Assembly: GCA_041389005.1 (NCBI GenBank)
Contig: JAWKSR010000002.1
Location: 1,482-65,481, forward strand
DNA: 64,000 nucleotides
Reading direction: 5' to 3'
Source of the DNA: Minisyncoccota bacterium
GTDB taxonomy: Bacteria; Patescibacteriota; Minisyncoccia; Phycocordibacterales; UBA918
This document shows positions 22,317 through 59,938 of the stretch, one piece after another. How positions within the stretch are numbered: position 1 is the first letter of the stretch; each line of letters begins with the position of its first letter. The translations under genes and the position numbers were made by a program. Below the pieces are notes generated by a model. It was not told the DNA's origin. It saw only the letters and a list, made by a program, of their open reading frames with translations, and ran no database searches.

Positions 22317-22360
22317 TTGCATAAATACATATATATAGTATTCTGTGCGGGCTATTAGTT
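22317..22360 (+). promoter_or_regulatory. candidate promoter upstream of rpsL (TTGCAT ... TATAGT/TATTCT)
   Basis: TTGCAT at 22317-22322. AT-rich -10 candidates: TATAGT at 22334 (spacer too short, 11 nt) and TATTCT at 22339 (spacer 16). Preceded by the hairpin ctgaagactc...gagtcttcag and a terminator-like accgg..ccggtttttt. Confidence 0.35.
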
Positions 22361-22774
22361 ATGGCAACAATCAATCAATTAGCACGAAAAAAGCGCCGCG
22401 ACCCAGTCAAGAAAAGCAAGACTGGTGCGCTGCAAGCTGGCTTCAATAAGATCAAGAACGCACCTAATGAATACAACTCGCCGTTTAAGCGAGGGGTGTG
22501 TACTCGTGTGACAACCAAGACACCACGTAAGCCGAACTCTGCGATTCGTAAAATCGCTCGTGTTCGTTTGAGCAATGGTCAGGAAATCACCGCGTACATC
22601 CCAGGTATTGGACACACGCTTCAAGAACACTCAGTGGTTTTGGTACGTGGGGGTCGCGTGAAAGATATCGGTGTGCAATACACTGTGGTACGTGGTAAGT
22701 ACGATGCCGTTGGTGTTGATGCTCGCCGCCGTGGGCGAAGTCGCTACGGAGCCAAGAAACCAAAAGGAGAGTAG
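22361..22774 (+). CDS. rpsL: 30S ribosomal protein S12
   Basis: [13 protein letters not shown]....[45 protein letters not shown]. Confidence 0.97.
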
Positions 22775-22911
22775 TGAACTCCCTTAATTACAAATAGTTT
22801 ATATTCGCTACAGATTATCGAGTGGTGTCTGTTAAAGACAGAGGACCATTATGCGAAGAATGAAAGAATGATTTGTCATACTTTCTCTTCGTTACACTAA
22901 GTAACAACATT

Positions 22912-23385
22912 ATGAGACGACCAATAAAGAAACGCCCAACCGTAAATCCCGACATTAAGTACGGTGATGTGACTGTTGAGCGCCTCATCAACTACATCAT
23001 GCTTCGTGGTCAGAAGGAGACTGCGCGCAAGATTGTGTACGCTGCTTTTGAGGACATTAAAAATGCCAAAGAAGGTGGTGGCGAGCCAGTTGAAGTATTT
23101 AAGACTGCGCTCCAGAACGCTGGTCCAATGATGGAAGTGCGTTCCCGCCGTGTTGGTGGTGCAAACTACCAGGTACCACGTGAAGTGCGACCAGAGCGCC
23201 GCGAAGCACTGGCGCTACGTTGGATTATTGCTGCAGCACGCAAGCAAAAAGGTATTCCAATGTTCAAAGCCCTGGCAAACGAACTCATGCTCGCCGCTAA
23301 AGAAGAAGGTGATGCAGTAAAGAAGAAGGAGGATACGCATAAGATGGCTGAGGCTAACCGTGCCTTTGCCCACTTCGCCTGGTAA
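22912..23385 (+). CDS. rpsG: 30S ribosomal protein S7
   Basis: MRRPIKKRP...D.KYGD..V.RLINYIM.RGQK..A.KIVY.AF; ends ANRAFAHFAW. Confidence 0.96.
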   Translation: MRRPIKKRPTVNPDIKYGDVTVERLINYIMLRGQKETARKIVYAAFEDIKNAKEGGGEPVEVFKTALQNAGPMMEVRSRRVGGANYQVPREVRPERREALALRWIIAAARKQKGIPMFKALANELMLAAKEEGDAVKKKEDTHKMAEANRAFAHFAW

Positions 23386-23390
23386 TTCTA

Positions 23391-23492
23391 AAACGAGCGC
23401 ATTACGGCGTTGAGTTGCAGTCAAATTGTATTCACTCGGCTTAAGCCGCATTCATACAATTTGCTTTACTCGCCTTGTATTGCATCTCGTTT
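23391..23492 (+). other. ~100-nt imperfect extended hairpin after rpsG
   Basis: aaacgagcgcattacggcg...caaattgtat tcac tCGGCTTAAGCCG cattc atacaatttg ...cgccttgtattgcatctcgttt. Apex palindrome at 23437-23448, followed by the terminator at 23508-23534. Confidence 0.6.
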
Positions 23493-23507
23493 AAGAATCA
23501 CCTACAG

Positions 23508-23534
23508 AAAAACGACCCGCCTGGGTCGTTTTTC
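23508..23534 (+). terminator. rho-independent terminator after rpsG
   Basis: aaaaACGACCCgcctGGGTCGTtttt. Confidence 0.85.
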
Positions 23535-23663
23535 TGTGTCACAGTTTTCTTAAAGAGTAGACAACGAATCACATTTATTATATTTTTCATCTGTCTGTAG
23601 AAAACAGATAGTTCCTTTCAACAATCCAAAATCGACCTGTACAAGGCAGAGAAAGAGGATGGA

Positions 23664-24889
23664 ATGACTAATCCACTTGAAATACTGCCGGAATCATATG
23701 TCGGCGCGATGCGTCAGACTGGAGCGACACTTGGACACCCTCGTGCGTTGCTAAACGTCGGTCAAGGAACCTTCATGAACTGGTGAAAGGTCTACGCTCT
23801 TGTGAATCCTCCCTGAAGCGCAATATCGGATACCTTCAGCAGAAACTCGAAATCTTTGACCGCAAATCACCGGAGGTTTTTGCTGAGGAAGCACACTTTT
23901 CTGTCGGCGTGACCGCGCTGAACGCAGGTTTGTATCCTGAGTCGAAAATTAGACTCGGTGACGCGGCTTTCGACTACGGACACTCCACCTTCGTTAGGTG
24001 TGGATCGTGCAAACACCAGTCGAGTAGGGGACGTAATGAAGTGTAAGGTTCTGGGAACATTCGATTCGGAACAAGGCGCTTCCTATGACTCCCCCTGTCT
24101 TCTTCGCCAGATGTCTATTCCTGAGATCGCAGCACTGAGCCGTCGGTTCAAAAGCGGATTCAGACCCTCAAAGATCATCGAAACATCGTCAGGAAACAGA
24201 TCTCCAGAACGCGTGAGTTACTGAACGACAGTGAAAAACTGCCGATCCTGCCGGATAGCCTTTGGGGATAGAAGAATCAAGTTGCGGTACGGCGATCGCG
24301 TGCGGTGTATGTATTCACCCCATGTTGCCGCAAACGTGATTGCAATCGCTGGCAGCCGGCGACGATTCTATTTTCTGGCAACGGCTTCAATGTCTTCTGT
24401 TTTGATTATCCGATCATGACTGGAAGAACTGCTCGCCGCGGCGTCGAAAGTGGCGGGTCAAGTGGCCGAAGCACGTCTGGTTTTATGGAAGCTCTAAATA
24501 CATTGTACTCCTGGAATGGGAGTATCCAGAAGTTGCGCGAGATGTATCGAGCGAATCCCGAGGATCCCTTCCTGGAGACTTGGAAAAGGCGTTTCAAAGG
24601 TGATTTTACACCTTATGAGCACTTCAGTGATCAATACCTTGAACTTTCGATGGCGCGTCTCGTGACCGAGCTTTTCAAGGGTAAGGAAATCGATCCACTC
24701 GACTACGATCAACGTCTCATGGGTGCGGACGAGGCTGCGGAAATACTCGGCTTTGATCAAATCCCAGATTCTCCTGGAGATGTCATTCAGTACTATCGCC
24801 GTCTTTTAAAAGATGGTCACCCTGAACTACATCGTGCCAAGGACACTCTGCTTCTGCGTATTTATGGGTCAAGTAGCGTTTCTGAGTAA
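23664..24889 (+). pseudogene. multiply frame-broken hypothetical gene with J-domain-like C-terminus (HPE instead of HPD)
   Basis: RBS aagaGGAtGG, then ATG at 23664. The reading frame hops through ORFs 23783..24046, 23958..24224 and 24305..24889. C-terminal EILGFDQIPDSPGDVIQYYRRLLKDGHPELH resembles helix I-II of a DnaJ J-domain. Confidence 0.35.
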
Positions 24890-24909
24890 AACCGGAATTA
24901 GCGAAATAT

Positions 24910-24944
24910 ACCGTCTGCCCTTCGGGGCGGGCGGTTTCTTTTTG
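24910..24944 (+). terminator. rho-independent terminator
   Basis: ACCGTCTGCCCttcgGGGCGGGCGGTttctttttg. Confidence 0.65.
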
Positions 24945-24987
24945 CAACGAGTTTTCTGTACAAGAATCCTGAGTTAGATACAAGATT

Positions 24988-26008
24988 TTAACTTGGTCTA
25001 CGACCTAAACGGCGGGCGAGTTTGTAGATGATAAAGAGGATTAAGATTAGGAGGGTGAGTTGTACAAAGGCTGGGTGGGCAAGATAGAGCGAGAAGGAGG
25101 AAAAAGGCAAAGCGTAAAGAGTTTATTAAAGGCGGCTTTCAGGACGGTGGCTATGGTGTCTACGACACCTATGGTTCTATCACCGTTGCGTTCCACGTTC
25201 CCAAAGCCACGTTCATCGTACGCACTGGTACTACTCGAGGAAGAGGCTGTCGTGTCTGATGGTGCAGGACTGGCGTTTACTTCTTCATGTGCGGTGTTGC
25301 GAGTGGCACGGTAGGTGTCGACCCGATTTTTGGTGGTGTTGATGACTTCGGTCACTTCACCTAAAAAAGTATCAGCTCGACTATCGGTAAGATAGCGCTC
25401 TAGACCACTCCTATCGGTGTCATGGTCATTGGTAGAGCCCGTGTTGTTGCTGGCGTTTGTCTCTGAGTCTGTTTCTGCATTGTCCTCAGTCTCTTCAGTG
25501 TCTGCTGGCGCTTCGTTGTACGTGAGTGGTTCATCATCCTCATCATCTGGCAGGTAATCGCCGTCATCATTGGTATCGTTTAGGTTACCGATACCATCAC
25601 CATCAGTGTCGTAGTCGATAAAAATAGTGTCAGTCACTTCGGTGATAGCGACCGTAACGGTGCGAGTCGATGAGCCAACTGGTTCAAGGCAGGTACGACT
25701 AAGCACGGCTTTCACCGTAGAAGTACCATAGCTTGGTTCCCAGTCTGCCCAGCTTTCGATGATGCGGTTGTTTAGGGCTTCGATGTTTGTGCGTTCCAGC
25801 CGTGTATCGTTTACATAAAATTCAATCGTACCAGTGAGGTCACTGCCGGTGTTATTTCCGAATGGCAGCGTAGATACGTACCGAGTGTATCTGCAAACAC
25901 TGCTGAGGTGTCATACCAAAGACCCTGCACGAAGCCGGCATTCTCTTGTGCGTACAAAGCAACGGGACTAATGATATAGAAGAGGAGTAGTAGACTACAT
26001 ACTCGCAT
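24988..26008 (-). CDS. secreted acidic protein with thrombospondin-type-3-like Ca-binding Asp repeats and probable C-terminal TM anchor (about 2 frame breaks)
   Basis: Signal peptide MRVCSLLLLFYIISPVALYAQE (ORF 25811..26008). DYDTDGDGIGNLNDTNDDGDYLPDDEDD (ORF 25047..25715). After a shift near 25120 the alternative frame gives LTLLILILFIIYKLARRLGRRPS*, with a stop at 24988. Confidence 0.5.
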
Positions 26009-26130
26009 ATACCACCAGTATACCCTTTGTTTTGGTCATAAAAACACGTTTGTCACTTTCATCCCTACAGACACGTCTAAAACGGCGTATAGTATAGATA
26101 CGATTATTCGTTGTAATAAACACATATTAT

Positions 26131-26520
26131 ATGGAAACCTCAATGTTTCTAACCCAGGCGTTTGGACTCTTCTACGTCATTGGAGCCCTCGCGCTTTTGA
26201 TGCATAAGAACTTTATGCGTGACCTCGCACAGTCAATTCTTGTCAAAAGAGAGATGATTATCTTTGGCGGCTTTCTCACCCTTATCGTTGGTATTCCGCT
26301 AGTGTTGGTGCATAACGTGTGGGAAGGCGAGCCCTACGTCATCATTGTCACCATTTCCTGTTGGCTTACTTTCCTGAAGGGAGTTATTCGGGTGTGGTTC
26401 CCTGACTTTGTTAGTCAGATGGGCACGCAATTAGTTGCTCAAGCGACTGCAATCCGAGCGGTATCATTCATCATGTTGTTGGTGGGTGTATATCTCTGTT
26501 ACGTTGGATTCGGGATGTAG
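26131..26520 (+). CDS. small integral membrane protein (4 TM)
   Basis: 129 aa with four hydrophobic segments. No family recognised. Confidence 0.6.
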   Translation: METSMFLTQAFGLFYVIGALALLMHKNFMRDLAQSILVKREMIIFGGFLTLIVGIPLVLVHNVWEGEPYVIIVTISCWLTFLKGVIRVWFPDFVSQMGTQLVAQATAIRAVSFIMLLVGVYLCYVGFGM

Positions 26521-26532
26521 AAGCGGGGCATG

Positions 26533-26573
26533 AAAATAACGCGAGGGTGCAGAGCAACCTCGCGTTATTTTTT
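26533..26573 (+). terminator. rho-independent terminator
   Basis: aaaATAACGCGAGGgtgcagagcaaCCTCGCGTTATttttt. Confidence 0.8.
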
Positions 26574-26591
26574 GTATACTTACCTCACGTT

Positions 26592-27203
26592 ATGAAAAAT
26601 CTTTGCACTTCCGCCTGGCAACATAGTCTTGGTACCGCACTTCTACTAGCGTTTGTCGGTGCTTGCTACCACTATGTACAAGCTGACTCCCTTAATGTCT
26701 ATGCTGTCAATCGAATCATCGCTGACGTAGCTCTGCTACTCATCGGTTACTCGATTGCTGTTGGAGCATTGGTGAAATGGTGGGGTATTGGCACTACGAC
26801 CATTGCCTACCGCCGCGAATATGGAGTGCTCGGTTTTGCGTTGGCACTACTTCACGGTGTGCTTACTTTTGCATTGCCACGCTTTAGTCTCACCGGACTG
26901 CTGTTGCCGGAGAACATTGTCGGTTTTGGTGCGGCGGTCATTTCACTAACTCTTCTCACTATTATGACGGCGGTCTCTGTGGCGTGGATCAAAAATACCA
27001 TTGGTATGCTTTGGTGGCGCCGCACGCTTTCTATTGGTATTTACGCGTATGGTTTTGGACTTTTACACGCTGTTATAAAAAGTGTTGATGTGTGGTCGTA
27101 TGCATCCTGGCATCAGGCAGGTTTACCGCCGCTGAGTCTATTTGTATGTGGCGCCGCCAGTGCCATGTTTTTCGTGTGGTGGTTTGCTCGTTTTGTGCGT
27201 TAA
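26592..27203 (+). CDS. polytopic membrane protein (possibly ferric-reductase-like/MsrQ-like TM domain)
   Basis: ATG at 26592, after the terminator. Six predicted TM segments with conserved-looking His residues (LALLHGVLTF; FGLLHAVIK). Family assignment is tentative. Confidence 0.5.
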   Translation: MKNLCTSAWQHSLGTALLLAFVGACYHYVQADSLNVYAVNRIIADVALLLIGYSIAVGALVKWWGIGTTTIAYRREYGVLGFALALLHGVLTFALPRFSLTGLLLPENIVGFGAAVISLTLLTIMTAVSVAWIKNTIGMLWWRRTLSIGIYAYGFGLLHAVIKSVDVWSYASWHQAGLPPLSLFVCGAASAMFFVWWFARFVR

Positions 27204-27230
27204 ACGTACGGCCTCGTAAAGTTTCCAGAT

Positions 27231-28376
27231 ATGAAAAAGGTGATTGAAACGAAAAAACAGTTCTCACTCAAAGATGAATTATTTAATGAGACAAAAGTTA
27301 AGCGCTTAGCTCGTGAAATAAAAAAAGCCCATCCAGCTTTTAATGCCAATCTTTTTGTACGTGACGTTGTTGATGCTTTTCCGGGGCAAGAGCTTATGCA
27401 ACGTCTGCGTCACATTACCGCCATGCTACGGCGGCATCTTCCGAGAGAATACCCAAAAGCGCTGGCGGTCATTTTAAAAGCTCTGCCAGAACCACTCGAT
27501 CCCAAGAAAACCGATAACGATTTTGGGGACTTCATCTACGGACCGTACTCATATTTTGTCGCAACGTATGGGTGTACTGAAAAGCATGTAGAGAAATCAC
27601 TCAAAGCTCTCGCTGAAATAACCAAACGCTTCTCAGCGGAAGGAGCCCTACGAGATTTTCTTAATGCCTTTCCTAAGGAGACCCTCGTTGCGGTTACCGC
27701 TTGGTCTCAGGATGCTAATTATCACGTGCGTCGCCTCGCCAGTGAGGGGACTCGTCCCAATTTGCCGTGGGCGAAAAAGATTACGGTCTCACACCGAAAA
27801 TTTTTGCCTCTTCTTGATCGCTTGCACAGCGACCCGACTCGGTATGTCACCCGCTCGGTAGCCAACCACCTCAATGACATTGCCAAGTTTGATCCCGAGA
27901 CAGTATTGAAGTTGCTTAAAAAATGGCAGAGGACTGACAAGCAAGAGAGTAAAGAGCTCGCCTTTATCACGAAACACGCTTTGCGCACCCTTATCAAAGA
28001 TGGTCATCCTAAAGCACTCGCGTTACTCGGGTACGAGGAGTGTGATGTGACGGCAAAACAGTTTCGGTTGGCGAATAAAACAGTCACCATTGGTGAGGCG
28101 TTAGCATTTTCGTTCACCCTTCGCTCAACCAGCACAAAAACGCAGTCGCTCATGGTTGATTATCGTATTCACTTCCATAAAGCCAATGGCTCATTGGCAC
28201 CAAAGGTGTTTAAGATCAGCAGCGTTGATCTACAGCCCGGAGAATCAAAGACCTTTTCAAAAAACCATCCTCTCAAACCCATGTCTACTCGAGCGCTCTA
28301 TCCTGGTGAACATAAACTCGAATTGCAAGTCAACGGCAAAAGCCTCGGCACCAAGACCTTCACGCTTAGTAGCTAG
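27231..28376 (+). CDS. DNA alkylation repair protein, AlkC-like HEAT-like-repeat glycosylase with C-terminal Ig-like domain
   Basis: N-terminal FSLKDELFNETKVKRLAREIKKAHPAFNANLF....ELMQRLRHITAMLRRHLP matches my recollection of AlkC family N-termini. RRLASEGTRPNLPWA. C-terminal beta-rich ~90 aa. Confidence 0.55.
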   Translation: MKKVIETKKQFSLKDELFNETKVKRLAREIKKAHPAFNANLFVRDVVDAFPGQELMQRLRHITAMLRRHLPREYPKALAVILKALPEPLDPKKTDNDFGDFIYGPYSYFVATYGCTEKHVEKSLKALAEITKRFSAEGALRDFLNAFPKETLVAVTAWSQDANYHVRRLASEGTRPNLPWAKKITVSHRKFLPLLDRLHSDPTRYVTRSVANHLNDIAKFDPETVLKLLKKWQRTDKQESKELAFITKHALRTLIKDGHPKALALLGYEECDVTAKQFRLANKTVTIGEALAFSFTLRSTSTKTQSLMVDYRIHFHKANGSLAPKVFKISSVDLQPGESKTFSKNHPLKPMSTRALYPGEHKLELQVNGKSLGTKTFTLSS

Positions 28377-28797
28377 TTTGGTGGGTTTTCTTAAGGTCTT
28401 TGAGTCCAGCTCTAATGAGTTTGGCGAGAACCTCTTGGTCAATCTTGGACAGGTTTTTTAAATACAGGCATGATTTACCAAGTTTATGCGGACCGAGTTT
28501 TTCGAGTAGTTTCGAATAGTCTTTATAGCCCGGCATGATGTAGATCGTGGGACCACTTTTACGCATCGAAAATCCGATTGCCATAAATTGTCCCTCATCT
28601 CCATTACTCCGGTGGTAGGTGTAGCTGCCAAATCCAATAATACTCGCACCCCACATGACAGGCTTCATACCAGTCACGTCTTTAAATAATTTTAGGAGTA
28701 CCTTGGCGTCTTTTTGTACGCGTGGATCAAGGGTTTGTATATAGGCACTGACACTACGGTTATTCTTGGTAGTTTTAAGTTTGATGGCTTTTGACAT
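28366..28797 (-). CDS. DUF1801 (YdhG-like) domain protein
   Basis: VSAYIQTLDPRVQKDAKVLLKLFKDVTGMKPVMWGASIIGFGSYTY....G......GFS.RKSGPTIYI. Confidence 0.7.
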   Translation of the reverse strand: MSKAIKLKTTKNNRSVSAYIQTLDPRVQKDAKVLLKLFKDVTGMKPVMWGASIIGFGSYTYHRSNGDEGQFMAIGFSMRKSGPTIYIMPGYKDYSKLLEKLGPHKLGKSCLYLKNLSKIDQEVLAKLIRAGLKDLKKTHQTSY

Positions 28798-28827
28798 ACA
28801 TATAGTATATCGTTATCTCAAGTAGTT

Positions 28828-29463
28828 ATGACTATTTCAGAAATATACAAAAAGTACAAAATCAACCAAGGGCTACAGGGGCATATGTATAGAGTGGCTG
28901 CCGTTGCTTATTTTATCTGCAAAGCTTACCAAGAAGACATCGACACACGTTCTGTTGTTTCTGCTTGTCTTCTGCATGACATGGGGAACTTATTAAAATT
29001 TAAATTTGATGTAGCCCCGGAACTCTGTGAACCAGAAGGAGTTGAATATTGGCAAAAAGTACAAACTGAACTGAAAGAAAAGTATGGATCAAATGTCCAT
29101 GAAGCGACTTTGGCTATGGTGAGGGAGATTTCCCACGAAAAGAAAATTGTTGAGGTTGTGAACGAGGCATCGTTTGATGAGATTATTACTGTTGCAAATG
29201 AAGGCTCTGTTGAAGCTCAATTACTCGAGTATGCTGATATGCGTGTTGGACTTCACGGAGTTGTATCTCTGGATTCTCGATTCAACGATATAAAAGAACG
29301 GTATTGTCCCTGGCGTTTTTCAGAAGCTGAGCTTGAAACGCGCAGAAAAGCTGCAAAACAGATAGAAAATGAACTGCTTGCAAGCACCATCCTTAGTCCC
29401 GAAGCTATTTCTGATGTGACAATTCGCGAACCCATGAACGAATTGTCTAATTGGGAGTTGTAA
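28828..29463 (+). CDS. HD-domain phosphohydrolase
   Basis: GHMYRVAAVAYF... ACLLHDMGN (H...HD motif). Confidence 0.7.
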   Translation: MTISEIYKKYKINQGLQGHMYRVAAVAYFICKAYQEDIDTRSVVSACLLHDMGNLLKFKFDVAPELCEPEGVEYWQKVQTELKEKYGSNVHEATLAMVREISHEKKIVEVVNEASFDEIITVANEGSVEAQLLEYADMRVGLHGVVSLDSRFNDIKERYCPWRFSEAELETRRKAAKQIENELLASTILSPEAISDVTIREPMNELSNWEL

Positions 29464-29513
29464 TGATTTGGTTTTTAGTTACCTTGAATAGGAAGAAAGG
29501 AGGTGATTCTTTG

Positions 29514-29591
29514 ATGACATATTTTGTCGATAAATACGGCATTGTGCATACATCACGTGAAGCATGTGTGCTTGCCAATCAAACATATTAA
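29514..29591 (+). CDS. candidate micro-protein (25 aa) with a consensus-like Shine-Dalgarno
   Basis: gaAAGGAGGTGAttctttgATG. MTYFVDKYGIVHTSREACVLANQTY*. Hairpin 29624-29644 lies downstream. Confidence 0.3.
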   Translation: MTYFVDKYGIVHTSREACVLANQTY

Positions 29592-29623
29592 ACCTCATAT
29601 ATTATGTTCTTTTAGTATGAAAT

Positions 29624-29644
29624 GAGCCGACCTTTGGTCGGCTC
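29624..29644. terminator. hairpin / probable bidirectional terminator
   Basis: GAGCCGACCtttGGTCGGCTC, between the micro-ORF (+) and the TVP38 gene end (-). Confidence 0.55.
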
Positions 29645-29650
29645 TCTGTG

Positions 29651-31732
29651 CTATTCAGCTTTGAAGCGGCGCAAGAGTCGTGATAGTACGATTGAGAAGA
29701 TAAAGATCCCGACCGAAAGAGCAAGGTACTTAGGGTCAAGGGCGCTGTAGGTCAGACCGTCCATTTTTAATTGTTCGAGATTAATCGCGGCACCAAGTGC
29801 CACAAAGGTTGTGAGTCCCGGTAAGATACCGATAAATGTTGCCAGAGCGTAAGACGCCCATCGTACCCCAAGTACACCAGAGCCGTAGTTACAGAGATCA
29901 AATGGCACATAGAAAAGACGCATAAAGAGCACTGATTCAAACGGACGACTGCGAAGCCACTCAATCCAATTACCCAAGACCGAGTCTTCAAGTCGCAGGT
30001 CTTTACCAAAGAACCGCCCAATCCAATAGGCAAGATTGGCGGAAAGGTTTTCACCAATCAAGGTATAGATGATTCCCCACCAAAATCCAAACAATACACC
30101 CGAGAGGGCAGTGAGTAACGTAGCTGGGAAGAGAATGAGTGGACGAATGGTATAGGCAAGCATGTACACAAACGGTCCCCACATTGAGGTGGTGAAGAAG
30201 TCGATAAGCTGCAAGAGGACATCAGTGTATGAGAGGTGGTTAATGAGGCGGTAGTGCTGGAATTGGTAAATCAGTGTGACCCAGAAAACAGCGGCAATTA
30301 GTTTTGGTAGGTGTTTCTTTATGAGACGCACAACGTCTTGTTTGAGATCAGTGAGTTGCTGAGCCAGGAAGCGGTCGCCAGCTTTTGGATAAGCTGTCCG
30401 TAGGTTGGGTACGCATAGATAAGTTGCTGAAGTTTCCACATGGAAATCTTTTGGTCAATCGCCAGGGTAGCCAAACTAATGAGCTCACCAGCGTGAGTGC
30501 CAAAGACAGTTGCTCCTAACACTGCTCCGTTAAGACGCCGGACGGTAAACACCACCACCCCTTCAGTGGCTTCATCAGTAACCGCTCGATCTGCTTCAGT
30601 GTATGGGACTTCAAGGCGCATCACCTCGCTATTGTGATAGCGCTGACACGCCTCCTGGTAGTTCATACCAACAGACGCAATTTCTGGGTCTGTATAGGTA
30701 ACCTTAGGAACGGCTTTTTTATTATTGACTCGTAACACTCCCCACGAAGCGACAAAACGCACGACTTGTCGAGCGGCATCACTGGCGGTGTGGGTGAACT
30801 TAAGGGTTTTGTGAAACGTCACCGACCGCAAACACATAACGATTGGCAGTGCGGTACTGACTGTCTATTTTGACACCACGTTTGTCGTACGAAATACCTG
30901 CTTCTTCCAGTCCTTCTGGTAGATTGGGCACTCGTCCGATAGCAACCAGTACTTTGTCGAAGGTAACGGTCTCGTGCTTTACCACTTCACTGCCTCGTTT
31001 GACAGCAAAGACGCTTGTCGTCCATCAACGTGTTCAATATGCGCGCAATGCAAAATGGTAATACCAAGCGCTTCAAAGGAAGCCTCAATCTTCGGCGCCA
31101 CCACGCTATCTTCGCGAGCGGCAAGACTCTCATCAATGGTAGCAATAGTGACCTGGGAGCCAAGGAGTGCCAACGCCTGACCCATCTCCATGCCAATCGG
31201 TCCGCCGCCGATGACTAAGGTGCGTTCTGGTACTCGATCAAGATCAAAAGATTTTGGTTGGTAAGAGTGTCCTGGGCTTTAAGCCCTGGTATCTCAATGA
31301 GACGTGGAGAGGAACCAGTAGCAATAACTGCTCGGCGATAACGATAGGTAGTACCAGCGACCGCAATGGCACAAGGAGCAATAAAGCGCGCTTCTCCCGA
31401 AACAACAGTAATACCAAGCGCTTCAAACTGCTCAGCTGTTTCTTCTGCTAATATCGCGTTTACTTTTGTCGGACGTAAGAAAAAGCATCTGCTCGATAGG
31501 CGTTGGTCAGTAGGAGTCGTGCCTGCAATGGTCACAGCTTGGTGGTATGCCTGGCATGATGGAGAAGTGCTTTACTTGGTACACAACCAGAGTTGGTACA
31601 CTCACCACCCATGTGTTCACGTTCAACAAGCAGTACCGATTTACCCACCTTGGCAAAGCCAACTGCCGCCGTAAGTCCGCCGGAGCCTGCCCCAATAACA
31701 ACCACATCATACGTTTTTTGCGCTCGTTCCAT
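29651..31732 (-). pseudogene. fusion of class I pyridine-nucleotide-disulfide oxidoreductase (N-terminal) and TVP38/TMEM64 (DedA-like) membrane domain (C-terminal); oxidoreductase part has at least 5 frame breaks
   Basis: 31732: MERAQKTYDVVVIGAGSGGLTAAVGFAKVGKSVLLVEREHMGGECTNSGCVPSKALL (GxGxxG plus redox CxxxxC). Fragments 31215..31535, 30979..31191, 30800..30985 and 30319..30837 carry NAD-binding and dimerisation-domain sequence. 29651..30439 is an intact TVP38 domain (VLFGFWWGIIYTLIGENLSANLAYWIGRFFG), in frame with the end of the dimerisation domain. Confidence 0.7.
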
Positions 31733-31794
31733 TACTCACTCTTATTTATGTAGGTAGTGTAGCATTTTCGGTTAACGATAGTGTGCGTAACAAT

Positions 31795-31830
31795 AAAAAG
31801 CCGGACGCGCAGCGTCCGGCTTTTTGTTTT
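31795..31830. terminator. bidirectional rho-independent terminator
   Basis: aaaaaGCCGGACGCgcaGCGTCCGGCttttt. Confidence 0.85.
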
Positions 31831-32012
31831 TAGGCTGCCACCAACACTATGAAGAAGAGGAACGTGCCAATGAGTGGTATCAGCGTCACTGCCGCCACTA
31901 CCATGCGGTCTGAGAGCACAGACTCAAGAGAGTCAACGTAGGTTTCTAGGTCCTGATACGCTTCGCGAAGCAGCGATACGTACGAACGTACGTATGATTG
32001 AATATATTGCAT
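31830..32012 (-). CDS. small tail-anchored membrane protein (60 aa)
   Basis: RBS taGGTGGtgggctATG. MQYIQSYVRSYVSLLREAYQDLETYV...VVAAVTLIPLIGTFLFFIVLVAA. Confidence 0.45.
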   Translation of the reverse strand: MQYIQSYVRSYVSLLREAYQDLETYVDSLESVLSDRMVVAAVTLIPLIGTFLFFIVLVAA

Positions 32013-32093
32013 AGCCCACCACCTAACTAATAAGTAAAAGCGCTCTTTTATTACCACACATTAAAAAATAAGTCAAATAATACAAAGAGTTAG

Positions 32094-32307
32094 GTGACAA
32101 AAAGAAAAGGGTAGGGTATAGTGTGCGCACTTTGCCTACGGGTGAGAGAGTGCGGGGCACTCTCGCAAGACTTTGCTTGGTAGTTTCAGGAATACATGGA
32201 CTGAAATAACGGCAAAGTATACAGAGCCTGTAAGGCTTTTTCTCTCTACGCCAGGTAGGTCATATAGGGAGATATACATAATTATTTATTTAAAATTATT
32301 TGATTTT
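32094..32307 (+). promoter_or_regulatory. fusA promoter (GTGACA-17-TATAGT) plus 185-nt structured leader
   Basis: -35 at 32094-32099, -10 at 32117-32122. The leader contains hairpins gagagtgcggggcactctc and agagcctgtaaggcttttt. No SD before the ATG. Confidence 0.55.
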
Positions 32308-34506: not shown

Positions 34507-34508
34507 AC

Positions 34509-34537
34509 TTGAGTGTATTCACAAAACTATATATAGT
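34509..34537 (+). promoter_or_regulatory. sigma70-type promoter (TTGAGT-17-TATAGT) opening the fusA-tuf island
   Basis: -35 at 34509-34514, -10 at 34532-34537. GGAGG at 34557-34561 lies 5 nt before the ATG at 34567. Confidence 0.55.
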
Positions 34538-34566
34538 GTTTACAGACTCAAGCAATGGAGGTTGGT

Positions 34567-48659: not shown

Positions 48660-48677
48660 GTTGTGTGCAATTTAGTT

Positions 48678-48753
48678 ACCCAGCCTCATTTTGGGCGAAG
48701 CGCGTGCTGAATAAGGTAATAGCGAGAGCCCGTAACAAAAAATGGGGCTGGGT
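48678..48753 (+). repeat. structured ~76-nt element, copy A (nested three-stem hairpin)
   Basis: aCCCAGCCTCATTTTgGGCgaagcgcgtgctgaataaggtaatagcgagaGCCcgtaacAAAAATGGGGCTGGGt. About 70% identical to 58344-58421, with compensatory changes in the outer stem. Confidence 0.7.
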
Positions 48754-48830
48754 GATTTATAAGAGATGTGCTGCCAACAAAAAGCCCGTAGCTACGCTGC
48801 GGTATTTTTGTATCCAGTACTCACCAAAAG

Positions 48831-48860
48831 AAACGCCAGGCATCAAAGCCTGGCGTTTCT
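48831..48860 (+). terminator. rho-independent terminator about 80 nt downstream of element copy A
   Basis: aaaCGCCAGGCatcaaaGCCTGGCGtttctc. Confidence 0.7.
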
Positions 48861-48957
48861 CTAAAATACTATGGGTGGTATTTCGGTTTCTCAAGTGAAA
48901 TGTGGACGTCATGCCACACTCACTATATATGACGATTGAAAACCACTTTTCTTTCAA

Positions 48958-49004
48958 AGAAAAAAGCCTGGCGACGGGAAACGTTGGAGTTCACGTCGTC
49001 AGGC
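48958..49004 (-). terminator. rho-independent terminator (minus strand)
   Basis: Minus strand: GCCTGACGACGtgaactccaacgtttcCCGTCGCCAGGCtttttt. Confidence 0.7.
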
Positions 49005-49266
49005 TTCCAAAATTCCACAGATGTCTTTTTCAGACCGAGAAGCGTTGAGCTTCTCTTATAATCCTACTCAGACCCATCTGGACTTGGTTTGGTCGCTCGT
49101 CTCGTAGCCTAGCGTACCTTGGTGTCGGGAAAAAGGTGAAACTCGAAGGCGCTTCTCACACCTCCATTATCGACAGTGACCAAACGAGTGATCATTCGTA
49201 TCTCCATTTCCCGAGCTGAAGCTGTACAATACAGAGAAACGCGCTCGTTCCGTTTCCCCTATATGC

Positions 49267-49296
49267 ACCATACACCCAACACCACCTTTTTTGCAA
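49267..49296 (-). promoter_or_regulatory. candidate minus-strand promoter (TTGCAA-18-TATGGT) of an orphan ~300-nt unit
   Basis: -35 at 49296-49291, -10 at 49272-49267. Divergent from the rplC promoter. No ORF of 60 aa or more between it and the terminator at 48958-49004. Confidence 0.35.
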
Positions 49297-49316
49297 GCAT
49301 GTTCCTGGTACTAACC

Positions 49317-49515
49317 TTGCAAAACGTGGATAAATCCGTATACTAACGCCAGTTTTCTAAGACCTACGTTCGGTGATATCTGGCTTGCCAGATTGAGAAC
49401 CAATGGGCACAAAACCGCGATTTTTGATTGCGAGCTTGTGCTCGCGACCGAAAAGCGCGGTTTTGCATTTTCGGGTCTAATAGAAAACAGATTATTAGAC
49501 TAGTTCAGAAAATAA
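49317..49515 (+). promoter_or_regulatory. rplC promoter (TTGCAA-16-TATACT) plus 171-nt structured leader
   Basis: -35 at 49317-49322, -10 at 49339-49344. Leader stems: gttttctaagacc/gggtctaatagaaaac, atctggcttgccagat, caaaaccgcg/cgcggttttg (perfect 10 bp), gcgagcttgtgctcgc. Confidence 0.6.
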
Positions 49516-52155: not shown

Positions 52156-52301
52156 ATATGGAGAAAGCAAACCGTTTTGCTTTCGTGCTATTTATTAAGA
52201 CGTAGTCATATCGCAAGCGCCTTCCCTAGCGCTTGTGATAGACGAGTCCGGGTAGGAGGTTTTTATGAACGTAGTGAATTAGAAACCTGACGCATACGTA
52301 A

Positions 52302-52333
52302 GAAAAAACCATCCTGACAGGCGGTCAGGATGG
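52302..52333 (-). terminator. rho-independent terminator (minus strand) for the antisense small gene
   Basis: Minus strand: CCATCCTGACCgcctGTCAGGATGGtttttt. Confidence 0.75.
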
Positions 52334-52371
52334 AGTCATTATGTTTGCTGCTGCATTTGTTAACCTTGAGG

Positions 52372-52557
52372 CTATTTCTCTGCAATGCCTCGACTGACCA
52401 GCATCTTCCGTGTTTCAAGCGCCCGCTGCGCGTTCGCGTCACCGTTTTTTGCTCGTTTTTTTACTTCCTCAATGGGGTGATGCGATGTTTTTGGATCCGG
52501 ATACGAGATGTGTCCACGCCACATCTCTTCCGGTTCCGGTGTGTACATGCCTGCCAT
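52372..52557 (-). CDS. small hypothetical protein (61 aa) encoded antisense between rplB and rpsS
   Basis: ggaaGGAGGttcatATG (5-nt spacing). MAGMYTPEPEEMWRGHISYPDPKTSHHPIEEVKKRAKNGDANAQRALETRKMLVSRGIAEK. Own terminator. Candidate extended -10 (tgGTATAAG) upstream. Confidence 0.5.
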   Translation of the reverse strand: MAGMYTPEPEEMWRGHISYPDPKTSHHPIEEVKKRAKNGDANAQRALETRKMLVSRGIAEK

Positions 52558-52623
52558 ATGAACCTCCTTCCGGCTAATGGTCACCAGTGTTTCTTATACC
52601 ACGCGAGTGATACTTCTGTCTCG

Positions 52624-52803
52624 TTGACATTTCACACTGTTTCCCGTACTATAGCGCCGTTCTAACCTCGTTACCACATACCCCTGGCAGGGTGTTTGGC
52701 AACAACAGGAAGTAGCTAAGAAAACCGTTATTTTCTTGGCATCCATATTTCCTTTCATACCGTAGCAGCTAGCGCTGCCGGTTTTATTCGTTATTGAGTC
52801 AAA
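52624..52803 (+). promoter_or_regulatory. rpsS promoter (TTGACA-17-TACTAT) plus 151-nt leader
   Basis: -35 at 52624-52629, -10 at 52647-52652. The leader starts aGCGCC..., with hairpins cccctggcagggtg and gcagctagcgctgc followed by cggtttta. Confidence 0.65.
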
Positions 52804-56980: not shown

Positions 56981-57199
56981 TTGTATTTTCTCTATTTTCG
57001 CGTATAGTGGGCGGCACCATAAACGTTGCTTGAGAGTAGATGGGAGTGGCGTTTGTGAAGGCGAATCGAAAGATTCTGCCGGATTTATCAGGGGCAAGTC
57101 AGTACATCTAGCTGATACTGCCTACTGCACACAATCATATATCTTAAATAAAACAGCTTTGCTGTTTTGTGTGATGTGTGCCAACTAACTAAACCCACA
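56981..57199 (+). promoter_or_regulatory. rpsN promoter (TTGTAT-16-TATAGT) plus ~190-nt leader
   Basis: -35 at 56981-56986, -10 at 57003-57008. The leader ends with the hairpin aaaacagctttgctgtttt (about 57150-57170) just before the GTG start. Confidence 0.55.
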
Positions 57200-57385
57200 G
57201 TGGCTCGAACATCAATCAAAGTACGCGCAGCGCGTACTCCAAAGTACAAGAGTCGGGTGGTCCGTCGCTGCAGCCAGTGCGGACGTAAGCAAGGATACAT
57301 GCGAGATTTCGATCTCTGTCGTATCTGCTTCCGCGAGGCAGCTCACGAGGGACACATCCCGGGTATTAAAAAATCATCATGGTAA
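57200..57385 (+). CDS. rpsN: 30S ribosomal protein S14, type Z (61 aa, zinc-ribbon)
   Basis: GTG start. (M)[55 protein letters not shown], with CxxC...CxxC. Confidence 0.9.
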
Positions 57386-57771
57386 GCGATTCAGTTGGTG
57401 ACTTCATCATTCAGCTTAAAAATGCTGGAATGGTAGGCAAGACAACTGTCTCACTACCATATTCAAAGCTTCGCCATGCGATTGCAGAGAAGCTAGCTGT
57501 AGCAGGATATGTTGCAGGTGTTGAAGTTAAAGGTAAGGACATCAAGAAGAATCTTGAGGTCACCCTTAAATATGATAATGGCACTCACACGATTAACGGT
57601 GTAAAGCGCGTGAGCAAACCAGGTCGACGTCTCTACGCTAAGGTAGGGGAAATTTATCCAGTTAAATTTGGGAAGGGTCACATTATCCTCTCTACGCCAG
57701 CCGGCATCCTCACGGGTGAGGAAGCACGTCAGGCAAATGTAGGAGGTGAGCAGCTCTTCACTATCTGGTAA
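57379..57771 (+). CDS. rpsH: 30S ribosomal protein S8
   Basis: D.VGDFI.QLKNA; SKPGRR.Y; ILSTP.G.LTG.EAR...VGGE.L..IW. Confidence 0.95.
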
Positions 57772-57774
57772 GTT

Positions 57775-58308
57775 ATGAGTCGACTCGGAAAACAACCAAT
57801 CAGCATCCCTAGTGGAGTTGAGGTTACATACACAGATGGTTCTTTGACCGTTAAGGGACCAAAAGGAACGCTTGTGCGAGACATGAAAGCTGATGTTACG
57901 GTAACCGTAGCAGACGGCGCCATCACGCTCGTACCAGCGAAGGAAACAAAAGAAGCCCAGGCACTCTGGGGTACGTATGCATCCCACGTTACAAACATGA
58001 TTCATGGTGTAACTGAAGGCTACGAAAAAATCCTCGAAATCGAGGGGGTAGGATACCGGGCTGAGATCAAAGGCACGAGCATTGTGCTCAATGTCGGATT
58101 CTCACACCCTGTAGAACTACCGTTCCCAGAAGGAATCACCGCAGAGGTCGAAAAAAACGTCATCAAAATCAATGGTATCGATAAAGAAGCGGTTGGTCAG
58201 TACGCTGCCAACGTTCGCAAAGTGAAGAAACCAGAGCCATACAAGGGCAAAGGTATTCGGTATCAGGGCGAGTATATTATTCGTAAGCAAGGCAAGAAAG
58301 CCGTTTAA
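57775..58308 (+). CDS. rplF: 50S ribosomal protein L6
   Basis: MSRLGKQPI.IP.GV.V......LTVKGPKGTL; GVGYRAE; PEPYKGKGIRY.GE. Confidence 0.95.
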   Translation: MSRLGKQPISIPSGVEVTYTDGSLTVKGPKGTLVRDMKADVTVTVADGAITLVPAKETKEAQALWGTYASHVTNMIHGVTEGYEKILEIEGVGYRAEIKGTSIVLNVGFSHPVELPFPEGITAEVEKNVIKINGIDKEAVGQYAANVRKVKKPEPYKGKGIRYQGEYIIRKQGKKAV

Positions 58309-58343
58309 AGTAAGGAGCGGTAACGCGACTATATTTTAAACGG

Positions 58344-58421
58344 TCCAGCTCCCATTTCGGGCGAAGCGCGCCGCCGAATAGGCAATCATAGCGCAAGCCT
58401 GTAACAAGAAATGGGGCTGGG
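58344..58421 (+). repeat. structured ~78-nt element, copy B, inserted in the rplF-rplR spacer
   Basis: tCCAGCTCCCATTTcGGGCgaagcgcgccgccgaataggcaatcatagcgcaaGCCTgtaacaagAAATGGGGCTGGg. Same architecture as 48678-48753. Ends 16 nt before the rplR ATG. Confidence 0.7.
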
Positions 58422-58437
58422 CGGGAAAATATCTAAC

Positions 58438-58788
58438 ATGAACAAAACACAAGCAAAAACACAAAAGCGTGTCAGTCGCCATAAGCGCATTCGCGCCAAG
58501 GCAATTGGTACCGCCGTTAAGCCTCGCTTGGCAGTCTTCAAAAGCAATACTGCCGTATATGCTCAGCTTATTGATGACAGTACGCACACAACACTAGCAG
58601 CCGCTGATACCCGCAAACTAAAGGGTGACAGCCTCACCGCACGCGCGAGTGAGCTTGGCAGTGTTATTGCTAAAAAAGCTAAGGACGCTGGTATCGAAGC
58701 AGTGGTCTTTGACCGCGGTGGATTCAAGTACCAAGGTTCTATCGCTGCTTTAGCTGATAGTGCTCGATCTGGAGGACTTACATTCTAG
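58438..58788 (+). CDS. rplR: 50S ribosomal protein L18
   Basis: R.RRH.RIRAK..GT...PRLAVFKSN...YAQLIDD....TLAAA; AVVFDRGGFKY.G...ALAD.AR..GL.F. Confidence 0.94.
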   Translation: MNKTQAKTQKRVSRHKRIRAKAIGTAVKPRLAVFKSNTAVYAQLIDDSTHTTLAAADTRKLKGDSLTARASELGSVIAKKAKDAGIEAVVFDRGGFKYQGSIAALADSARSGGLTF

Positions 58789-58810
58789 TTAATCAATTAT
58801 TGTTATTACT

Positions 58811-59485
58811 ATGTCAGAAACAAAACAGGAAGCTACAACTGAGGAAGCGGTAAAAGACACCGCCTCTACAGAGACAGCTGCTACCGAGGTAGCTGCTACC
58901 GATGCACCTGCTGACACAGCCAACGACACACCAAAAAAGGCAGACGAAAAAGCTGCTCCTGGTGATCGTGGTCGTGGACGCGGTGCAAAAGGGCGTAACG
59001 AACGCCGCAACCCGCGCCGTCCCCGCCGCAACAACCGCCGTGATGACCGAGCGCGTCAAGAATACGATCAAAAGATCATTGGTATTCGCCGCGTGACTCG
59101 TGTGATGGCAGGTGGTCGCCGGTTCTCATTCTCCGTCTCAATGGTGATTGGAGACAAGAAGGGTAAAGTGGGCGTTGGAGTTGGTAAAGCATCTGATACC
59201 CAGCTTGCAATCGAGAAAGCAATGCGCAACGCCAAGAAGAATCTCATCGTAGTACCGATGAATAAAGATCATCAAATCACTCACGATGTGCACGTTAAAT
59301 ATGCTTCCAGTGAAGTGATGATTATTCCAGCAGCTGGTCGCGGTTTGGTGGCCGGCTCTTCAGTCCGTACCGTCCTTGAACTGGCTGGTGTGAAAGACGT
59401 GACTGCGAAACTACTCTCTCGCAGTAAGAACAAACTTAATAATGCTCGCGCCACTATCGAAGCGCTTAAGCAACTTAAAGGATAG
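58811..59485 (+). CDS. rpsE: 30S ribosomal protein S5 (about 75-aa acidic/Arg-rich N-terminal extension)
   Basis: IGIRRVTRVMAGGRRFSFSV.MVIGD..G.VGVG.GKA..V..AI.KA; IIPA..G.G..AG...R.VLELAG..DV..K. Confidence 0.94.
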   Translation: MSETKQEATTEEAVKDTASTETAATEVAATDAPADTANDTPKKADEKAAPGDRGRGRGAKGRNERRNPRRPRRNNRRDDRARQEYDQKIIGIRRVTRVMAGGRRFSFSVSMVIGDKKGKVGVGVGKASDTQLAIEKAMRNAKKNLIVVPMNKDHQITHDVHVKYASSEVMIIPAAGRGLVAGSSVRTVLELAGVKDVTAKLLSRSKNKLNNARATIEALKQLKG

Positions 59486-59488
59486 CCT

Positions 59489-59938
59489 ATGCAGTTACAC
59501 GAACTAAAACCAAGTACTCCACGCAAGAGCGCTAAGCGTATCGGTCGTGGCGGTAAACGAGGTAAGACCTCGGGACGTGGACATAAAGGGCAGAAAGCTC
59601 GTACTGGTAACAGTACCCGTCCAGAAATGCGAGAAATAATCAAAAAACTACCGAAACTACGTGGTCACGGTGTAAATCGGGCACAAACGGTAAACGCTGA
59701 TAAGCAACTACCAGTAGCGATCAATGTGTCAGCGCTAGAAACTGCTTTTGAAGCGGGTGCTGAAGTGTCTCCAAAGACACTAGTAGCAGCGGGTGTAGTA
59801 CGTTCTCACCGCAAGCAAGCACCGAAGGTAAAGATTCTCGGCAACGGTGACCTCACCAAGAAACTTTCAGTGACTGGATGCGCGGTATCCAAGACAGCAA
59901 AAGAGAAAATTGAAAAAGCAGGTGGAAGCGTGGCATAA
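59489..59938 (+). CDS. rplO: 50S ribosomal protein L15 (directly follows rpsE; no rpmD)
   Basis: MQLHELKP.....K.RIGRG...GKTSGRGHKGQKAR.G. Confidence 0.94.
   Translation: MQLHELKPSTPRKSAKRIGRGGKRGKTSGRGHKGQKARTGNSTRPEMREIIKKLPKLRGHGVNRAQTVNADKQLPVAINVSALETAFEAGAEVSPKTLVAAGVVRSHRKQAPKVKILGNGDLTKKLSVTGCAVSKTAKEKIEKAGGSVA

Follow-up and report, generated by a model that had tools for sequence, protein, structure and literature searches.

In the 64,000-nt stretch of DNA analysed here (contig JAWKSR010000002.1 of a Minisyncoccota bacterium; we call the whole stretch the window) the str/S10/spc cluster of ribosomal genes is interrupted several times, which raises the question of what restarts expression after each interruption and whether the separate pieces are regulated one by one. 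Ribosomal protein (r-protein) feedback RNAs have been characterised chiefly in E. coli and in a small number of other groups. In the window the cluster is split into six separate units, precisely rpsL-rpsG, fusA, tuf-rpsJ, rplC-rplB, rpsS-rplE and rpsN-secY, and the dividers between them are terminators plus DNA stretches of 0.7 to 12 kb that are unrelated or do not code for proteins. Each module is predicted to end in an intrinsic terminator, and for five of them a new start is predicted at a sigma-70-type promoter (local consensus TTGCAA-17-TATAST), behind which lies a long folded leader of 145-185 nt. We consider it likely that this segmented arrangement of modules with their own promoters and leaders is clade-wide and that the leaders act in cis as regulatory RNAs of their particular module, most likely by feedback sensing, each responding to an r-protein encoded in its own module. 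The leader candidates would be new, and the kind to which they would belong, the r-protein autoregulatory leader, is already known; the segmented cluster in which they lie is itself unusual for bacteria. Promoter use, termination and protein binding are proposed here from the comparison of sequences.

Sequences and comparisons

As relatives we considered 80 loci, each taken with 10-kb flanks on either side of rplB, onto which 27 proteins of the window were mapped (labels such as L002 refer to these loci). The closest rplB among one-genome-per-species representatives was 83% identical, and the matches were labelled Nomurabacteria, Kaiserbacteria or Paceibacterota; the sole recorded rplB identical to that of the window is on a metagenome scaffold of 1.6 kb. 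Judged from the window proteins, the genome belongs to the Patescibacteria, Paceibacteria (Parcubacteria), near Kaiserbacteria.

The stability of a leader fold was expressed as a z-score with respect to dinucleotide shuffles. Covariation was evaluated by imposing a structure on the alignment and by counting the percentage of paired cells and the pairs with compensatory changes, with 500 shuffles as control for the rpsN core and for the tuf leader. Rfam (4227 families) was scanned with the whole window at the gathering threshold and, permissively, leader by leader. The ribosomal RNA (rRNA) comparison used E. coli 16S and 23S as partner. For the survey of Shine-Dalgarno (SD) sequences, 45 gene starts of the window were inspected.

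The rpsN leader and the S8-binding site

The leader upstream of rpsN faithfully reproduces, as judged from direct comparison, the helix-loop-helix to which S8 binds in 16S helix 21. The window element reads GGGGC-AAGUCAGU-(loop)-GCUGAUACU-GCCU and helix 21 of E. coli reads UUGUU-AAGUCAGA...UCUGAUACU-GGCAA, in the part that is the S8-binding site (PMC10931766). The two have in common the strings AAGUCAG (16S nt 595-601) and CUGAUACUG (nt 637-645), the core being identical to nt 595-599 and 639-644, and they share the same layout: lower helix, unpaired A, A-U and G-C pairs, two bulged bases, U-A pair and upper helix.

The site behaves as a constrained structure in the relatives. In the 15 rpsN-leader sequences of alignment A2, GUC and GA(U/G)AC are invariant, while the pair equivalent to 596-644 varies (A-U, C-G or G-C); 90% of the cells of the core are paired, with compensatory changes in 8 of 12 pairs, a value that none of the 500 shuffles reached, and slid controls pair in just 33-45% of the cells. 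A covariance model built on the mimic recovered it with E = 1e-11 as the sole site of the window, where the second-best hit had E = 2.9, and, across 1.2 Mb of relatives, retrieved the homologous site alone, in 14 of them. The same model did not retrieve helix 21 when run against E. coli 16S. The apical part of helix 21 is much longer and its flanks are different, so that the mimicry rests on the direct comparison of the cores.

The element lies on the strand of the mRNA encoding S8, with rpsN starting at 57200, rpsH at 57379 and no terminator in between. The distance from its end to the rpsN GTG is 76 nt in the window, and in six relatives the mimic begins 44-52 nt before the start. The predicted S8 operator therefore, as far as its sequence tells, has the structure by which such an operator is defined and lacks the defining position, the overlap with a start. 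The presence of this copy directly supports autoregulation: excess free S8, whose gene lies two genes downstream, would bind the leader copy and thereby lower the expression of rpsN-rpsH and of the genes that follow.

In E. coli, S8 exerts feedback by mimicry of helix 21 through a site that overlaps the rplE start (PMC3616713). As in the spc operator of E. coli, the site described here is on the S8 mRNA, consists of two helices with an asymmetric internal loop between them, and has covarying flanking helices (PMC3616713, PMC10931766), and its core corresponds to A595 A596 G597 U598 C599 / G639 A640 U641 A642 C643 U644. It differs in being placed in a 5' leader before rpsN instead of over the rplE start, in a unit that starts at rpsN, rplN-rplX-rplE being in another unit, and in occurring in Patescibacteria, whereas the E. 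coli-type site has been reported only from Gammaproteobacteria. According to a 2024 review, how spc genes are regulated outside Gammaproteobacteria is unknown (PMC10931766).

The rplC leader

Alignment A1 comprises 20 close sequences from the transcription start region to the AUG and has a constant order: invariant AAGACCUAYGU, hairpin P1, invariant ACCAAUGGGCA, a long hairpin, a GGUCUU segment and a UUAUUAG box. In the window the long hairpin is followed by UUUUGCAUUUU and afterwards by GGUCU and UUAUUAGAC segments able to pair alternatively. The long hairpin and the outer P1 pairs are 92% paired, with compensatory changes in 11 of 22 pairs. Of 75 relatives, 47 have the CCAAUGG box no more than 260 nt before rplC, where chance would give about 1, and the box is kept down to 50% identity of the rplC protein; the P1 that precedes it folds, from unrelated sequences, in nearly all of the 46 sequences that were folded; in two loci its closing G-U...A-C is replaced by G-A...U-C.

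In distant relatives CCAAUGG is followed by a GC hairpin with a U-run; the top of this hairpin contains CYAUUG, which is complementary to CAAUGG, and the terminator fold and the CCAAUGG:CYAUUG fold lie within 0-7 kcal/mol of each other. This competition between a terminator and another helix supports attenuation: a protein occupying CCAAUGG would free the terminator and transcription would be attenuated. In the subgroup to which the window belongs the CYAUUG partner is absent and CCAAUGG is still invariant, which argues that a trans-acting factor recognises the box. In the minimum-energy fold of the window leader AAGACC:GGUCU closes the whole domain and excludes a GGUCUAAUA:UAUUAGAC hairpin near the start region. 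In this subgroup the long-range AAGACC:GGUCUU helix would hence compete with the GGUCUAAUA:UAUUAGAC hairpin, and such competing helices near the rplC start suggest, on the strength of the modelled folds, translational control in addition or instead.

By analogy, L4 is the candidate regulator, because it controls the S10 leader of E. coli, with L3, L23 and L2 as further possibilities; attenuation by L4 is established in E. coli (PMC3616713, PMC10931766). With the S10 leader of E. coli the rplC leader shares the position, as a long structured 5' untranslated region (UTR) before the operon encoding L4, and the presence of separate structures near the start region; as to a terminator-type hairpin inside the leader, distant relatives have a clear GC hairpin with a U-run and the window has the long hairpin followed by UUUUGCAUUUU. 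It differs in that the operon begins with rplC, rpsJ being with tuf in the preceding unit, and in that there is neither an Rfam match nor a recognisable similarity, the conserved part being the hairpin plus CCAAUGG. The candidate L4 leader of Archaeoglobi likewise is a structured leader heading an L3-L4-L23-L2 module with the same genes (PMC7247131), but it is an archaeal motif, and no Rfam family, those of PMC7247131 included, matched the rplC leader. In the 2020 leader survey in question (Eckert and Weinberg) the candidate phyla radiation is not represented among the candidates, nor are rpsN/rpsH or tuf (PMC7247131). The proposed switch also resembles that of the B. subtilis infC-rpmI-rplT leader, where binding of L20 decides between a competing helix and an intrinsic terminator (PMC1865079); the protein, the operon and the RNA are different, and here the switch is deduced from near-isoenergetic folds. 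As a mimic of 23S rRNA we rejected CCAAUGG, which occurs once in E. coli 23S (nt 2703) in another structural context.

Fixed joints and variable cargo

The interruptions fall at the same places in the relatives. A spacer of at least 500 nt was found at rpsG-fusA in 7 of 10 loci, at fusA-tuf in 16 of 24, at rpsJ-rplC in 29 of 45, at rplB-rpsS in 42 of 65 and at rplE-rpsN in 29 of 45, and at none of the 17 other junctions of the cluster (80 loci). In 12 further loci rpsJ is absent from the available sequence upstream of rplC (at least 3 kb). The cluster is contiguous, with tight junctions, in the outgroup or more distant Paceibacteria L062, L066, L069, L070, L074 and L080.

What fills the joints is variable: the 533 spacer open reading frames (ORFs) of the relatives are mostly singletons, and the recurrent cargo is a tandem family of secreted proteins, an antisense gene of 105 aa in the rplB-rpsS spacer and a few shared accessory genes, of which NADAR, a BTLCP peptidase and cyclopropane-fatty-acid (CFA) synthase occupy the same joints in close relatives. 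The secreted-protein family fills the rpsJ-rplC and rplB-rpsS spacers of L004, L005, L020-L024 and L027, in up to 7 tandem copies, with N-termini resembling ...YNFMSAQWSAPT..APINVG... In some relatives the joints are just 140-310 nt long and still have the promoter and the leader (e.g. L012, whose rplC leader is in alignment A1).

Since these cargo-free joints carry terminator, promoter and leader, segmentation with regulated joints would have come first and the cargo later, and the comparison suggests that regulated joints preceded the accumulation of cargo rather than that islands broke the operon. The opposite order is possible, if unlikely: mobile or horizontally acquired islands would have broken an ancestral operon, and promoters and leaders would have been recruited to rescue the downstream genes. 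The contiguous cluster of the outgroup Paceibacteria fits this history, as do the accessory and surface-protein genes, the tandem families and the small repeated hairpin elements found in the spacers. It does not explain why the same five breakpoints recur in many independent lineages with differing cargo, nor why several joints without cargo already have a promoter and a leader; moreover, the rplC leader core, which is still found at 50-60% protein identity, predates all shared cargo, and the spacer ORFs inspected showed neither an integrase nor a transposase nor a tRNA target. The terminator-promoter joints would be the only sites of the cluster that tolerate foreign DNA without uncoupling co-translated genes, and this tolerance would be the reason why variable cargo (surface proteins, accessory enzymes, small repeats) is found there. 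When the 533 spacer ORFs of the relatives were used as queries, no remnants of decayed genes were found in the two non-coding spacers of the window.

Two of the joints have counterparts elsewhere. In Asgard and other Archaea uS10 is apart from uL3-uL4-uL23-uL2, and that module is often apart from uS19-uL22 onward (PMC10833476), so that the rpsJ-rplC and rplB-rpsS joints coincide with archaeal ones; the rpsG-fusA, fusA-tuf and rplE-rpsN breaks and the design with promoter plus leader are instead specific to this clade. Because the organism is a bacterium with contiguous outgroups, we consider the likeness convergent. A literature search, within the library that could be searched, found no paper describing this fragmentation or ribosomal leaders in Patescibacteria.

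The tuf-rpsJ leader

The leader of tuf-rpsJ is a junction of about 170 nt with invariant junction and loop nucleotides, conserved over a family-level clade of Paceibacteria. RNAalifold predicts that a CCGY/GCGG helix closes the structure, along with two hairpins: GGAGYA/UGCUCU, and a long, irregular one that covaries and has a UGUUCUCG loop. The window sequence folded singly also gives a multi-helix junction. The 19 sequences have UGCUCUUUCAC, GUUCUCGCG and AAGCAGCUGUGUGCGG in common; 91% of cells are paired, 16 of 26 pairs have compensatory changes and none of the 500 shuffles was as good. In the proposed scheme this leader and that of rpsS would be RNAs as constrained as those of rpsN and rplC.

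S10 is the default candidate ligand. We regard it as doubtful that at least one leader senses instead a signal other than an r-protein, tuf-rpsJ being the main candidate (guanine nucleotide or alarmone, tRNA, EF-Tu, or S10/NusE as a transcription factor). The leader does have a complexity like that of a riboswitch, with a closing helix around three hairpins and the three invariant segments named above; the first regulated gene encodes a GTPase translation factor and not a ribosomal protein, and no rRNA similarity was found in the leader. On the other hand, no riboswitch or T-box model of Rfam matches it, the element is confined to one clade, as is usual for r-protein leaders, and rpsJ is predicted to be co-transcribed with tuf, which makes S10 feedback the simplest reading. 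Equally doubtful is the more specific idea of a new class of sensor RNA, riboswitch-like or factor-binding, that would couple the synthesis of EF-Tu and S10 to a growth signal; guanine nucleotide, alarmone, tRNA charging or free EF-Tu may be such signals.

The rpsS and fusA leaders

The 12 rpsS-leader sequences keep CGUUCCAAACCUC, then a hairpin with a CUGGCA loop (one variant) and then a hairpin with a CCGUUA loop, and the stem of the CUGGCA-loop hairpin differs in each of the 12. This was read from single-sequence folds, RNAalifold being unsuited to a hairpin in which bulges shift the register. In more distant relatives the region from promoter to AUG holds just a short GC hairpin and a U-run before rpsS. 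Both loops lie within 9-mers of the window copy that also occur in E. coli 23S (CCCUGGCAG, nt 31-39, and AACCGUUAU, nt 94-102), which we note as an unconfirmed lead. The other long rRNA matches of the rpsS and tuf leaders were rejected as mimics: those that were compared with relatives fall on non-conserved leader positions.

Two parts of the fusA leader recur: a hairpin with a U-run, which closely follows the promoter, and a GGGAG(G) box at a distance of 35-60 nt from the AUG. The SD-like UAGGGAG(G) box is kept in L002, L003, L013, L015 and L023 and is too far from the start for a normal ribosome-binding site.

Properties common to the leaders

All five leaders are more stable than their dinucleotide shuffles (z from -3.8 to -6.2, Table 1), in agreement with the stable hairpins reported in them by a first-pass annotation of the window. 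The five promoter-like pairs were found at the positions that it had given, and its leader lengths (185, 188, 171, 151 and about 190 nt) are right if counted from the -10 hexamer. It had also described several leaders as ending just before a start without an SD; the lack of an SD is not a property of the leaders, being near-universal in the window (about 43 of the 45 starts inspected). Translation initiation must here use something besides the SD, perhaps AU-rich unstructured starts. What sets these modules apart is rather the length of the leader: ordinary genes start 10-20 nt after their -10 box (TATAGT/TATACT; e.g. 34555, 28797, 28828), hence long leaders, and not SD-less starts, are special to these modules.

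The conservation and covariation that the annotation had proposed to look for were found in the tuf, rplC, rpsS and rpsN leaders. None of the Rfam r-protein leader families that it had suggested to search was recovered: no leader matches any of the 4227 families, either at the gathering threshold or in the permissive scans, where merely weak matches resembling microRNA or small-RNA hairpins appeared, far below threshold. At the gathering threshold the 64 kb contain no Rfam RNA gene. Its suggestion that the leaders may be autoregulatory or attenuator elements is strengthened by the four conserved and covarying leaders, by the S8-site copy and by the terminator and competing helix of rplC, and does not extend with the same ease to fusA, whose leader is weakly conserved.

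The common features would also fit general expression devices (5'-end protection, processing sites or ribosome landing platforms that replace the SD) in very highly expressed operons, an explanation that we regard as improbable. The near absence of SDs from the window genes is in its favour, together with the conserved AU-rich boxes of UUAUUA type that precede the tuf and rplC starts by 15-30 nt, the hairpin plus U-run elements near several starts and the unusual stability of every leader. However, the ordinary genes are SD-less as well and have UTRs of 10-20 nt without a leader, the invariant single-stranded motif and the fold are particular to each leader, with no similarity to the others, as would be expected for specific ligands, and the rpsN leader is a nucleotide-for-nucleotide copy of the S8 site. 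In keeping with module-specific sensors, the leaders showed no similarity to one another in a repeat search over 46.6-60 kb, so that we rejected them as copies of one repeat or promoter cassette.

Points against feedback control and the question of the promoters

Several results weigh against the proposal of feedback-controlled modules. A generic sigma-70 scan gave 16 sites against 23.6 and 21.4 in shuffles, hence no enrichment. We found no convincing rRNA mimicry in the tuf, rplC and rpsS leaders, the 8-11-mers that they share with E. coli 16S/23S being at chance level, and the fusA leader is weakly conserved in relatives. In the subgroup of the window the U-run after the long rplC hairpin is interrupted, so that this is not a canonical terminator. 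The S8 mimic lies 45-80 nt upstream of the rpsN start and does not overlap the start codon; S8-like sites are present just in the closer subgroup (14 relatives), and a pattern search of the distant relatives with a gap between rplE and rpsN found none. Finally, the assembly is frameshifted in many genes, and the window copy may therefore be wrong at individual bases.

Since the generic scan is not above the shuffles, the support for the promoters rests on positional conservation: the TTGCAA and TATAST boxes keep their position across relatives and the DNA further upstream is unalignable. That the split is an artefact, either of a chimeric or wrong assembly or of chance promoter matches in co-transcribed units, is extremely improbable, since the many frameshifted genes of the window (fusA included) and a promoter scan not above chance are outweighed by the same architecture in dozens of independently assembled genomes from different studies and by -35/-10 boxes that are positionally conserved where the flanking spacer DNA is not.

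Layout of the window

The coordinates of the units, spacers, promoters and leaders are collected in Table 1. The translation of the ORFs and the reading of the spacers reproduced the split into six units and the gene order of the first-pass annotation, as well as its insert of 0.7 kb with an antisense gene and its NADAR gene before rpsN; both of its islands are present, with sizes of 8.6 and 12.2 kb. A hairpin with a U-run, considered as a predicted terminator, is found 3' of each of five unit ends (rpsG, fusA, rpsJ, rplB and rplE), and the inverted repeats after rpsJ, rplB and rplE are perfect or near-perfect, with T-runs.

Table 1. Units, spacers, promoter-like pairs and leaders of the split ribosomal cluster (window positions)
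Feature	Coordinates	Strand	Details
Unit 1	22317..23536	+	TTGCAT promoter-like region at 22317, short 5' UTR, rpsL, rpsG, terminator
rpsL	22361-22774	+	
rpsG	22912-23385	+	terminator ~23508-23536
Island 1 (8.6 kb)	23537..32093		accessory-looking genes and unrecognised ORFs
fusA promoter-like pair	32094..32122	+	GTGACA-17-TATAGT; same block in L013
fusA leader	32123..32307	+	hairpin + U-run 32223-32249; UAGGGAG box 32262-32268; z = -4.2
fusA (EF-G)	32308-34477	+	terminator 34482-34507
Island 2 (12.2 kb)	34508..46683		own promoter at 34509, UTR ~12 nt
tuf promoter-like pair	46684..46712	+	TTGCAT-17-TACTAT; in relatives CTTGCAAAA...GTACTAT
tuf-rpsJ leader	46713..46900	+	multi-helix RNA; z = -5.2
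tuf	46901-48088	+	
rpsJ	48247-48615	+	terminator 48622-48663
Non-coding spacer	48664..49316	+	chain of strong hairpins
rplC promoter-like pair	49317..49344	+	TTGCAA-16-TATACT; kept in >20 relatives
rplC-rplD-rplW-rplB leader	49345..49515	+	AAGACCUAYGU from 49359; P1 hairpin 49368-49400; CCAAUGG 49400-49406; long hairpin 49407-49470; z = -6.2
rplC, rplD, rplW, rplB	49516-52116	+	terminator 52117-52162
rplB-rpsS spacer	52163..52623		mini-element (+), antisense small ORF (-); gap ~0.7 kb in all
rpsS promoter-like pair	52624..52652	+	TTGACA-17-TACTAT
rpsS-to-rplE leader	52653..52803	+	CGUUCYAACCUC box; hairpin 52670-52703 (CUGGCA loop); hairpin ~52718-52737 (CCGUUA loop); hairpin + U-run 52762-52786; z = -3.8
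rpsS through rplE	52804-56382	+	terminator 56402-56446
NADAR-domain gene	56499-56978	+	Pfam E = 2.6e-30
rpsN promoter-like pair	56981..57008	+	TTGTAT-16-TATAGT; block CACGTATAGTAGGC kept in relatives
rpsN leader	57009..57199	+	long hairpin 57127-57180; z = -4.1
S8-binding-site mimic	57091..57124	+	lower helix GGGGC/GCCU, core AAGUC...GAUACU, upper helix CAGU/GCUG
rpsN through secY	57200..61227	+	rpsN (GTG start 57200), rpsH (57379-57771), rplF, rplR, rpsE, rplO, secY

Island 1 contains a DUF1801 protein, an HD-domain protein and a VTT/DedA-like membrane protein, together with a pyridine-nucleotide disulphide oxidoreductase in fragments on the minus strand. Island 2 holds the CFA synthase, the BTLCP peptidase (minus strand), a membrane protein and a giant surface protein represented by three ORFs (38110-46672). 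The NADAR gene is found at the matching position in the closest relative, L002. The gap after rpsJ measures about 0.9 kb up to rplC and is without a credible gene.

In the last unit rplF and rplR are separated by a 129-nt spacer with the second copy of a repeated hairpin element (58343-58424), and rpmD (L30) is absent from the rpsE-rplO junction (59486-59488). Loss of L30 is typical of the candidate phyla radiation. The rpsL-rpsG spacer (22775-22911, 137 nt) holds a hairpin; in E. coli the spacer between these two genes is the S7 operator. The tuf-rpsJ spacer (48089-48246, 158 nt) also holds one, at 48193-48220.

The reading of fusA runs through three frames, 1-nt deletions being found near 33222 (an A lost from an A-run) and near 33345 (TCA to TA), and its protein is otherwise 87-89% identical to the L002 copy. 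Because the gene is essential, we consider an assembly error the more likely cause of these frameshifts. Split genes are also found at 4508-5840, 17934-21183, 21546-22204, 30319-31535 and 38110-46672 (a pilB-like ATPase, comEC-like, site-2 protease-like, the pyridine-nucleotide oxidoreductase and the giant surface protein), and such adjacent split ORFs are consistent with either error-prone assembly or gene decay.

Small elements in the spacers

The stretch 48616-49316, after rpsJ, has a minimum free energy of -249 kcal/mol (z = -11.6 with respect to shuffles), and no protein remnant was found in it. The rpsJ terminator has a diverged second copy at 48772-48811. An element of about 80 nt forming a long hairpin is present in two window copies that are 81% identical, one at 48677-48755 in the rpsJ-rplC spacer and one in the rplF-rplR gap mentioned above; a third copy, in inverted orientation, adjoins the rplC leader of L004 (5822-5898). 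It looks like a miniature inverted-repeat-type element or a new RNA motif.

The rplB-rpsS spacer has, at 52225-52300 (+), a mini-element made of a hairpin, a strong GGAGG (rare in the genome), an ATG and an ORF of 8 codons. It occurs also in L017, L012, L024 and L065, in differing spacers of the ribosomal cluster, where the ORF reads M-S-V-S-E-L-E-T-stop, the window copy having a 1-nt deletion; the element may represent a leader peptide or a small RNA. On the opposite strand, an antisense ORF of 61-70 aa (52372-52584) has a GGAGG site, one of just two good SDs among the 45 starts inspected, and its own terminator (52333-52309), and gave no Pfam match. At this joint the relatives carry another antisense gene, which is conserved and about 105 aa long (MPKPRGNEHTTLTETA...).

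Biological meaning

For the study of r-protein regulation, the locus offers a predicted S8 operator at a new location, in a very distant uncultured phylum, and three well-constrained candidates (tuf, rplC and rpsS). For genome organisation, the most syntenic gene block of bacteria would be divisible at a small number of fixed joints, of which two match archaeal joints, and these joints point to natural modules: L3-L4-L23-L2, S19 to L5, and S14-S8 onward. In phylogenomics and binning, a compact syntenic block of 16 proteins on one contig cannot be assumed. The joints also gather variable surface-protein and accessory genes, which bears on the diversification of the reduced genomes of the candidate phyla radiation. 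If the tuf-rpsJ leader were a new class of sensor RNA, the reading called doubtful above, the five joints would more broadly be regulatory nodes through which an ultra-small bacterium tunes its translation factors and its large- and small-subunit modules independently.

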